Shown piece by piece: positions 9,476 to 13,517 of a DNA stretch of 64,000 nt. The stretch lies in assembly GCF_013315695.1 (NCBI RefSeq), contig NZ_CP054353.1; one strand, 5' to 3'. Under the pieces are notes generated by a model. That model did no database searches. It was not told where the DNA came from and was given only the letters and a program-made list of their open reading frames with translations. The stretch comes from Escherichia coli (GTDB lineage: Bacteria; Pseudomonadota; Gammaproteobacteria; Enterobacterales; Enterobacteriaceae). Positions within the stretch are counted from its first letter, which is position 1; every line of letters begins with the position of its first letter. A program made the translations under genes and the position numbers.

Positions 9476-9928
9476 TTATTCCTTACCCAGCAATGCCTGC
9501 AGATCCTGCTTCAGAGAAGACATTTTATTCGCGTATTTCTCTTTGTTTTCCGCATCTTCAATCAGCTGAACAATCGTTTCAGAAAGCGTTTTACCGCGAC
9601 GCTGCGCAAGACCAGCCAGACGTTGCCAGACAATAAATTCCAGATCGATCGATTTTTTGCGCGTATGCTGGTGTTCCGCATTAAAATGGCGCTTCCGTCT
9701 GGCCCGAATGGTCTGCTTCATGCGATTGACCAGTTCCGGATTCATATGCTTGTCAATCCAGCCATTTACCAGCACGGGTTCATTTTCCAGCGAGAGCAAC
9801 ACATCGACGGCTTCCTGGGCGGCACTGGCTTCTATGTAACGGGTGATTAACTCCCCTTCGCGATACTTCTTCACCAGATACTTCCATTTCCAACCGCTTT
9901 CAAGATTTTCAAGTTGTTGATATTTCAT
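9476..9928 (-). CDS. matP: Ter macrodomain organiser MatP
   Basis: 150-aa ORF matching MatP. Confidence 0.9.
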
Positions 9929-10113: not shown

Positions 10114-11874
10114 TTGACCATTACGAAACTTGCATGGCGTGACCTGGTTCCTGATACCGATAGCTATCAGGAAATATTTGCTCAGCCACATTTGATTGAC
10201 GAAAACGATCCTTTATTCAGTGATACTCAACCGCGACTGCAATTTGCGCTGGAGCAGTTGCTGCATACGCGAGCATCCTCCTCTTTTATGCTGGCGAAGG
10301 CCCCGGAAGAGTCTGAGTATCTGAATCTTATTGCCGATGCCGCGCGTGCGCTACAAAGCGATGCAGGCCAACTGGTGGGCGGTCACTATGAGGTTTCCGG
10401 GCACACCATCCGTTTACGTAACGCAGTGAGTGCAGATGATAATTTTGCGACTTTAACGCAAGTTGTCGCTGCCGACTGGGTAGAAGCGGAACAACTCTTT
10501 GGCTGCCTGCGCCAGTTTAATGGCGACATTACCCTGCAGCCTGGTCTGGTGCATCAGGCAAATGGCGGTATTCTCATCATCTCTTTGCGTACACTGCTGG
10601 CGCAACCTCTGCTGTGGATGCGGCTGAAAAATATCGTTAACCGCGAGCGTTTTGACTGGGTTGCGTTTGATGAGTCGCGCCCTCTCCCCGTCTCTGTGCC
10701 TTCGATGCCATTGAAGCTGAAAGTCATTCTGGTAGGCGAACGCGAATCATTGGCTGATTTCCAGGAGATGGAACCAGAGCTTTCAGAGCAGGCTATTTAT
10801 AGCGAATTTGAAGATACTCTGCAGATTGTCGATGCGGAGTCAGTAAGCCAGTGGTGTCGCTGGGTAACATTGACCGCAAGACATAATCACTTACCTGCAC
10901 CGGGAGCGGATGCCTGGCCAGTACTTATCCGCGAAGCAGCCCGCTACACCGGTGAACAAGAAACACTTCCGCTTAGCCCGCAGTGGATCCTCCGCCAGTG
11001 TAAAGAGGTCGCCTCCCTGTGCGATGGCGACACCTTCTCCGGCGAGCAGCTAAACTTAATGCTGCAGCAGCGTGAATGGCGTGAAGGTTTCCTCGCTGAA
11101 CGCATGCAGGATGAGATCCTTCAGGAGCAAATCCTGATTGAAACCGAAGGCGAACGCATCGGGCAAATTAACGCCCTTTCGGTCATTGAATTTCCGGGTC
11201 ATCCACGCGCTTTTGGCGAACCTTCTCGCATTAGCTGCGTTGTGCATATTGGCGATGGTGAATTCACCGACATCGAACGCAAAGCGGAGCTTGGCGGCAA
11301 TATCCATGCGAAAGGGATGATGATCATGCAAGCGTTCCTGATGTCGGAACTACAGCTTGAGCAACAGATCCCCTTCTCAGCATCGCTGACATTTGAGCAG
11401 TCATACAGTGAAGTGGATGGCGATAGTGCCTCGATGGCTGAACTCTGCGCCCTGATCAGCGCCCTCGCCGATGTGCCGGTGAATCAGAGTATCGCTATCA
11501 CAGGTTCAGTCGATCAGTTCGGTCGCGCCCAGCCAGTCGGTGGTTTAAATGAGAAAATCGAAGGCTTCTTTGCTATTTGCCAGCAACGTGAGTTAACGGG
11601 GAAACAAGGTGTCATTATCCCCACTGCTAACGTTCGCCATTTAAGTCTTCACAGTGAACTGGTGAAAGCGGTAGAAGAAGGCAAATTCACCATCTGGGCA
11701 GTAGACGATGTGACTGACGCACTGCCGTTATTATTAAATCTGGTGTGGGATGGCGAAGGCCAAACGACGCTGATGCAAACCATCCAGGAACGTATCGCAC
11801 AAGCATCGCAACAGGAAGGACGTCACCGTTTTCCATGGCCATTACGTTGGCTGAACTGGTTTATTCCGAACTGA
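10114..11874 (+). CDS. ycbZ: Lon-like protease YcbZ (LonH)
   Basis: 586-aa ORF with apparent TTG start; Lon protease-like C-terminal domain; matches YcbZ. Confidence 0.85.
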
Positions 11875-11885
11875 TCGGACTTGTT
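11869..11885. promoter_or_regulatory. FadR binding site in fabA promoter
   Basis: aactgatcggacttgtt closely matches the FadR consensus AACTGGTCNGACCTGTT; overlaps the last codons of ycbZ. Confidence 0.7.
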
Positions 11886-11887
11886 CA

Positions 11888-11905
11888 GCGTACACGTGTT
11901 AGCTA
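11888..11905. promoter_or_regulatory. FabR operator in fabA promoter
   Basis: agcgtacacgtgttagct palindromic element, matches the FabR site of fabA as I recall it. Confidence 0.65.
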
Positions 11906-11942
11906 TCCTGCGTGCTTCAATAAAATAAGGCTTACAGAGAAC

Positions 11943-12461
11943 ATGGTAGATAAACGCGAATCCTATACAAAAGAAGACCTTCTTGCCTCTGGTCGCGGTG
12001 AACTGTTTGGCGCTAAAGGCCCGCAATTGCCAGCACCGAACATGCTGATGATGGACCGTGTGGTCAAAATGACCGAAACGGGTGGTAACTTCGACAAAGG
12101 GTATGTTGAAGCAGAGCTGGATATCAATCCGGATCTGTGGTTCTTCGGATGCCACTTTATCGGCGATCCGGTTATGCCGGGATGCCTGGGCCTGGACGCA
12201 ATGTGGCAGCTGGTAGGGTTCTACCTCGGCTGGCTGGGCGGCGAAGGTAAAGGCCGCGCGCTGGGCGTTGGCGAAGTGAAATTCACTGGTCAGGTACTGC
12301 CGACAGCGAAAAAAGTGACCTACCGTATTCACTTTAAACGCATTGTTAATCGTCGTCTGATTATGGGGCTGGCAGATGGCGAAGTGCTGGTTGATGGTCG
12401 TCTGATCTATACCGCCAGCGACCTGAAAGTCGGTCTGTTCCAGGATACGTCTGTCTTCTGA
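11943..12461 (+). CDS. fabA: 3-hydroxydecanoyl-ACP dehydratase/isomerase
   Basis: 172 aa from ATG 11943 ([13 protein letters not shown]...); recognised FabA. Confidence 0.95.
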
Positions 12462-12490
12462 TAATAATCAGACAGAGTATAAAAAGGCGA

Positions 12491-12518
12491 AACCTCCGCA
12501 ATGCGGAGGTTTCTTTTT
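12491..12518. terminator. Bidirectional terminator between convergent fabA and rmf
   Basis: aacctccgcaatgcggaggtt hairpin flanked by aaaaa and tcttttt. Confidence 0.8.
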
Positions 12519-12530
12519 AAAGAGACAGAA

Positions 12531-12698
12531 TCAGGCCATTACTACCCTGTCCGCCATGGCTTCTCGCCAGCCTCCCAGCCATTGTGACCTTTGATTCAGC
12601 GTCTGATAGGGACACATTTCTTTTGAGCGTCCGGCGATGCCGGCCTGATAACCACGTTGATGTGCCCGTTCCAGGCGATCTCGTTTTTGTCTCTTCAT
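12531..12698 (-). CDS. rmf: Ribosome modulation factor
   Basis: Manual translation of minus strand gives MKRQKRDRLERAHQRGYQAGIAGRSKEMCPYQTLNQRSQWLGGWREAMADRVVMA (55 aa); the ORF track shows only an out-of-frame ORF here. Confidence 0.9.
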   Translation of the reverse strand: MKRQKRDRLERAHQRGYQAGIAGRSKEMCPYQTLNQRSQWLGGWREAMADRVVMA

Positions 12699-12953: not shown

Positions 12954-13517
12954 TTACGGTAGACGCTTTATCTCTTGCGCAATAGAAGCGGCTTCCTGAC
13001 TCCAGATACTGGCCAGCACTTTAACCATTTCATCGTAACCATCCTGAGTTTGCATCCCTTCCAGACGGAACGGACGTTTGATCAGTTGTCCCTGGTGGTT
13101 CAACAGCCACTCACCACTGACAATGACCTTGCCATCATAGCGACCGTTAAACTCCGTGACGGTAACATTGAGCGTGTCCTGGGCGCTTCCCAGAGGCTGG
13201 GAGGCAACCACCCAGCCGGGCAGTTGCGTACTCAGGTTGGCAACCAGGGTGTTGCGCAACTGTTGATCCAACGGGCTGGCCCACAAGTTGTTGTTGGCAA
13301 TCACATACTTCACATCACTAGTTTGATAAACCACACCATTCCCCGCCAGATAGTCAGGAACAGCGACCTGCTCTACCCATAACAGGCGATTACCCTGGCT
13401 GGCGGTACTTTGTGTACCGCTCTGCACCACAGGTAACTGGTAATAGTTTTTATTAATTTCGCCGGAGCTGCATCCGGCCAGCCACAGTGCTGCAATCGTC
13501 ACTAGCCACTTTTTCAT
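12954..13517 (-). CDS. pqiC: Lipoprotein PqiC (YmbA), paraquat-inducible MCE pathway
   Basis: 187 aa with lipoprotein signal (LAGCSS lipobox); matches PqiC. Confidence 0.85.
   Translation of the reverse strand: MKKWLVTIAALWLAGCSSGEINKNYYQLPVVQSGTQSTASQGNRLLWVEQVAVPDYLAGNGVVYQTSDVKYVIANNNLWASPLDQQLRNTLVANLSTQLPGWVVASQPLGSAQDTLNVTVTEFNGRYDGKVIVSGEWLLNHQGQLIKRPFRLEGMQTQDGYDEMVKVLASIWSQEAASIAQEIKRLP

Follow-up and report, generated by a model that had tools for sequence, protein, structure and literature searches.

The fabA promoter of Escherichia coli: a FadR operator overlapping the stop codon of ycbZ and an adjacent putative FabR operator

The promoter of fabA is among the best-characterised in E. 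coli. FadR is placed over its −40 region, and FabR at a site that overlaps the −10 region (PMC3462791). Three transcription starts were described for the gene by Xu et al. 2020, of which S1 is activated by FadR, S2 is repressed by FabR, and S3 is induced by acid (PMC7083825). S3 is dependent on CpxR, and 203 nt separate it from the fabA ATG downstream. The DNase I footprint of CpxR covers −287 to −255 relative to the same ATG, with the CpxR box GTAGAagaagGCAAA at −272 to −258 (PMC7083825). The 17-bp consensus for FadR has been given as aaCTGGTCnGACC(T/A)Gtt (quoted from PMC9329746), and the core motif for FabR in Salmonella as ACAnnTGTnnnnT (PMC4804515). In gel shift experiments, wild-type FadR retards the 56-nt probe fabA-F, whereas its W60G mutant does not (PMC4259882). 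An RNA-seq operon map of strain K-12 defines a ycbZ-fabA operon, and Conway et al. find in addition that transcripts of rmf can end before or within ycbZ-fabA, to which they are antisense (PMC4161252).

Two other systems are closely related. The promoter of E. coli fabB has the two operators in the same order and with the same one-base spacer, in the near-identical composite GGCTGATCGGACTTGTT-C-GGCGTACAAGTGTACGCT (probe, PMC4259882), although it belongs to a different gene. In Vibrio, FadR binds the palindrome in front of fabA and activates the gene (PMC5733061). The arrangement of these elements at one E. coli fabA locus, and in particular the overlap of the FadR box with the end of the upstream gene, is described here.

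The window is a 64-kb stretch of an E. coli chromosome, to which all coordinates refer. The 1.2 kb around the operators (11400–12600) has a match in 5425 of 5426 complete E. coli genomes. It is 100% identical to record NZ_OZ547117.1, which agrees with the window gene for gene, with coinciding gene coordinates. The one remaining complete genome has no match to 11400–12600, and a copy of the ycbZ-fabA-rmf region is also present on four plasmid records. The region is organized as follows.

9476–9928, − strand: matP (ORF list and RefSeq annotation).
10114–11874, + strand: ycbZ, 586 aa with a TTG start (ORF list and RefSeq annotation of the identical record).
11943–12461, + strand: fabA, 172 aa, a full FabA domain protein.
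12489–12513, both strands: terminator-like hairpin with an 11-bp stem (terminator scan).
12531–12698, − strand: rmf (ORF list and RefSeq annotation).
12954–13517, − strand: pqiC (ORF list and RefSeq annotation).

YcbZ has a LonB-like AAA domain and a Lon protease C-terminal domain (Pfam AAA_32 and Lon_C). The 3′ end of its gene reads ...ATT CCG AAC TGA, with the TGA stop at 11872–11874, and is separated from fabA by 68 bp. The frame of fabA remains open for 66 codons 5′ of the ATG, giving a 238-aa ORF from a GTG at 11745 to 12461. This extension runs through both operators and overlaps the 3′ end of ycbZ in another frame, and is probably due to chance. An Rfam scan of the whole window finds nothing at ycbZ-fabA; the only match above the gathering score is a PyrD leader RNA (RF02373, 97.9 bits) at 23494–23567 on the − strand, upstream of pyrD.

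The locus was compared with the FadR-activated, FabR-repressed fabA promoter of E. coli K-12 (locus L002). The operators are identical, the gap between ycbZ and fabA is equally 68 bp in MG1655, the sequence of the published probe is shared, and there are no differences in the control region. The surrounding genes differ by a few percent from most E. coli genomes, K-12 among them. Residue 171 of FabA (codon 12453–12455) is Val here and Ala in K-12 (A171V), the sole difference among the 172 residues. The published results on FadR binding (PMC4259882), co-transcription (PMC4161252), and the CpxR site and its start (PMC7083825) come from the K-12 literature on identical sequence, and this strain would be expected to act like K-12 at fabA.

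The control elements assigned to the region upstream of fabA are listed below, from 5′ to 3′.

11671–11685, + strand: CpxR box GTAGAagaagGCAAA, its published position mapped to the window, inside ycbZ.
11729–11740, + strand: −10-like hexamer TATTAT at 11729–11734, read from the sequence, and S3 start at about 11740, the mapping being approximate; inside ycbZ.
11869–11885, + strand: FadR operator AACTGATCGGACTTGTT, 17 bp, exact match.
11881–11886, + strand: putative weak −35 hexamer TTGTTC (3/6), overlapping the right half of the FadR box.
11887–11904, + strand: putative FabR operator, the imperfect 18-bp palindrome AGCGTACACGTGTTAGCT, proposed from a palindrome search, the core motif and the fabB composite.
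11904–11909, + strand: putative −10 hexamer TATCCT (TAnnnT), from the alignment described below and consistent with PMC3462791.

The first-pass annotation had placed the FadR site at 11869–11885, beginning within the last two codons of ycbZ, and direct reading of the sequence confirms this. The first six nucleotides of the box are the codon AAC for Asn586 of YcbZ followed by the TGA stop. AACTGATCGGACTTGTT is unique in the 64-kb window even when three mismatches are allowed (0.20 matches expected by chance), and it fits the consensus at 15 of 17 positions. The box has a non-consensus CTGATC half-site, which is also found in the fabB box. Window positions 11860–11915 are identical to the FadR-shifted probe fabA-F (PMC4259882), so that comparison with published binding data, which the annotation had proposed as a check, supports its identification of the site.

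The palindrome is positioned somewhat differently from what was originally proposed. It begins 1 bp after the FadR box and 13 nt after the ycbZ stop, and is entirely intergenic, so that the earlier statement that both operators begin inside ycbZ is correct for the six nucleotides of the FadR box and not for the putative FabR site. A palindrome is indeed present where one had been described, at 11889–11905 and 3 bp after the box. Its true span is 11887–11904, however, with a 1-bp spacer, and the earlier interval corresponds to the inner part of the palindrome plus one extra base. The two arms are at 11887–11897 and 11894–11904, with 0.03 matches expected by chance for AGCGTACACGTGTTAGCT. The Salmonella core motif fits positions 11892–11904, in agreement with the assignment of this element to FabR.

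The putative promoter hexamers are interleaved with the operators. The TTG at 11881–11883 is invariant among the 23 genera aligned, and a conserved TAnnnT is located 17 bp downstream of it. The palindrome occupies this 17-bp spacer and reaches the first base of the −10 hexamer. A start is predicted near 11916 from the conserved −10 hexamer, and the center of the FadR box (11877) is 39–40 nt upstream of this predicted position. A consensus promoter scan calls no strong σ70 promoter at the operators, which is unsurprising where transcription depends on an activator and the −35 hexamer matches at 3/6 positions.

These observations are best explained if the core of the fabA promoter is located at 11869–11905, with read-through from ycbZ passing over it, a reading to which we assign a probability of about 0.96. 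The FadR dimer would bind the 17-bp box roughly 40 bp 5′ of the start, overlapping the weak −35 hexamer, and activate transcription. Long-chain acyl-CoA would release FadR. FabR would repress fabA by binding the palindrome, which takes up the −35/−10 spacer.

The control region of fabA was described in the first-pass annotation as compressed against ycbZ, which understates the overlap. The published CpxR footprint corresponds to 11656–11688 when its offsets from the ATG are mapped to the window. The CpxR box, the footprint and S3 are all located inside ycbZ, and the control region therefore extends more than 200 nt into this gene. As with the FadR box, the control elements of one gene are here contained in, or run into, the 3′ end of the co-directional gene before it. 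The overlap amounts to only 6 nt for the FadR box, whereas the CpxR box is about 190 nt inside the ORF.

The terminator scan finds no terminator-like site between ycbZ and fabA. As ycbZ lacks a terminator of its own, transcripts from ycbZ and from promoters inside it cross both operators into fabA. This is what the annotation had claimed for read-through, and the RNA-seq evidence that it had asked for is already available in the published ycbZ-fabA operon (PMC4161252). Transcription initiated at the ycbZ promoter or at the CpxR-dependent S3 would traverse the two operators. The only terminator-like site on the + strand after ycbZ is the hairpin at 12489–12513, between the convergent genes fabA and rmf. 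Transcripts of ycbZ-fabA would end at this hairpin, which could serve both fabA and rmf.

The operator region is highly conserved within the species. The 60-bp block 11860–11919 is identical in 5384 of the 5425 E. coli genomes, although identity to the window over the surrounding 1.2 kb is only 95–99% in 5235 of these. A phylogenetic footprint was obtained by aligning the sequences that precede fabA in 23 genera. Invariant columns cover the core of the FadR box, the TTG at 11881–11883, the palindrome arms, and the TAnnnT at 11904–11909, and 23 of the 26 are found in 11873–11909.

The position of the ycbZ stop codon relative to the box was examined in fabA loci from 80 species of Enterobacterales, Pasteurellaceae and Vibrio, each species being represented once. 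A homologue of ycbZ immediately precedes fabA on the same strand in 77 of the 80. A box was taken as intact with three or fewer mismatches. The loci are distributed as follows.

45 loci: intact box whose positions 4–6 form the TGA of ycbZ, as in E. coli.
9 loci: intact box, with the stop 1–21 nt upstream; mainly Morganellaceae.
12 loci: stop in the same place and box degenerate, often with TGA changed to TAA; mostly Erwiniaceae.
5 loci: a shared earlier in-frame stop; Pectobacteriaceae.
6 loci: other arrangements; mainly Pasteurellaceae, plus one Photorhabdus and one Vibrio.
3 loci: no ycbZ match upstream, one of them being a truncated contig.

The class of 45 contains all the sampled Enterobacteriaceae, together with Budvicia, Hafnia, Edwardsiella, Serratia, Yersinia, Rahnella, Rouxiella, two Pantoea, one Enterobacterales MAG, and Vibrio penaeicida. 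The identity of YcbZ to the E. coli protein ranges from 96% down to 39% in this class. The last codon of YcbZ is NNC, for Asn, Gly or Ser depending on box positions 1–3, and the TGA of the box supplies the stop. A palindrome resembling the FabR site, with at most four mismatches, is present in 71 of the 77 loci. The overlap is conserved across species as well as across E. coli genomes, and is thus old and stable. In the Morganellaceae the stop is 9–21 nt upstream of an intact box. A reading in which ycbZ of Photorhabdus runs on through both operators was rejected, as tblastn alignments can extend across in-frame stops. The deep synteny of ycbZ and fabA hints that YcbZ, an uncharacterised Lon-like protein, may have a lipid-related role.

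A second palindrome, CTGGT-NNN-ACCAG, was observed in 24 of the 77 loci (including L030, L032, L033, L035 and L044). It is encoded by the C-terminal N-W-F-N-Q of YcbZ, roughly 82–90 nt 5′ of the fabA ATG. Its center is 15 bp upstream of that of the FadR box, and the two 17-mers overlap by 2 nt. The Pectobacteriaceae keep this palindrome even though it is downstream of their premature ycbZ stop and their main box is degenerate. Judged from sequence, this may be a FadR-type site that adds to the main box or replaces it. The equivalent position in E. coli (11857–11867) is not palindromic, and the upstream palindrome is therefore not part of the feature in the window.

Several other explanations of the conserved block were considered. 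The block could be conserved only as coding sequence for the C-terminus of YcbZ, its likeness to operators being incidental. Six bases of the FadR box are indeed coding, and the C-terminal motif R-W-L-N-W-F just upstream is conserved. However, 31 of the 37 bases are non-coding, the invariant columns continue to 11909, 35 nt beyond the stop, and the three codons before the final AAC vary freely among genera while the box is constant. Moreover, the same composite is found upstream of fabB, and FadR binds the identical probe. The codon variation and the invariant columns past the stop effectively refute this explanation. Alternatively, the palindrome, or an inverted repeat at 11850–11889, could be a terminator or attenuator of ycbZ that blocks read-through into fabA, and an RNA stem, GCUGAAC/GUUCAGC, does enclose the ycbZ stop codon. 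The predicted fold of 11850–11945, however, is no better than that of shuffled sequences (z = −1.74; 9 of 200 fold as well) and is without a U-tract, and the scan gave no terminator-like site there. The stem arms are also unconserved, for example in Enterobacter and Kluyvera, and RNA-seq shows a ycbZ-fabA operon (PMC4161252). This explanation was rejected on the terminator scan and the RNA fold, and is highly improbable.

Two further proposals accept the operators and give the overlap itself a function. Bound FadR or FabR might act as a roadblock that also gates read-through from ycbZ and S3, making the overlap a regulatory device. The geometry permits this, as every upstream transcript must cross both sites, and the arrangement is anciently conserved. 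Promoter function accounts for the conservation more simply, however, and a strong effect is argued against, so that we consider such a role unlikely. The other proposal is that the six shared bases are an ancient and selectively maintained case of dual coding, predating the split of Enterobacterales and Vibrionales, which fixes the length and the last residue of YcbZ and couples ycbZ to fabA in transcription. The TGA of the ycbZ homologue in V. penaeicida (L078) is at the same box position as in E. coli, while in two other Vibrio (L080 and L082) the ORF ends two codons earlier, with a TAG that directly precedes the box. At fabB the neighboring upstream gene is presumably divergent, so that the box there would hold the end of no ORF. 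In that case, ycbZ alone does not account for the A in the stop codon at fabA. The sharing of six bases follows from the 68-bp distance and the common direction of ycbZ and fabA, and dual coding under selection appears doubtful to us. If it were true, occupancy by FadR or FabR might modulate read-through besides initiation.

We therefore return to the fabA promoter core as the preferred reading. The overlap is confirmed, and the layout of the fabA promoter is real and evolutionarily old. The feature itself is ordinary: the FadR and FabR operators of fabA, its promoters, and the co-transcription of ycbZ and fabA have all been published, and nothing changes for E. coli. New here are the footprint across 23 genera and the shared register of the ycbZ stop within the operator (45 of 77 loci), a small comparative footnote. 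This register is a tidy case of an operator constraining the C-terminus of a neighboring protein, by a mechanism that is not new. For the biology of the organism, transcripts initiated upstream reach fabA and so bypass the promoter controlled by FadR and FabR. Regulation of fabA, an essential gene, will be impaired if the 3′ end of ycbZ is deleted or tagged.
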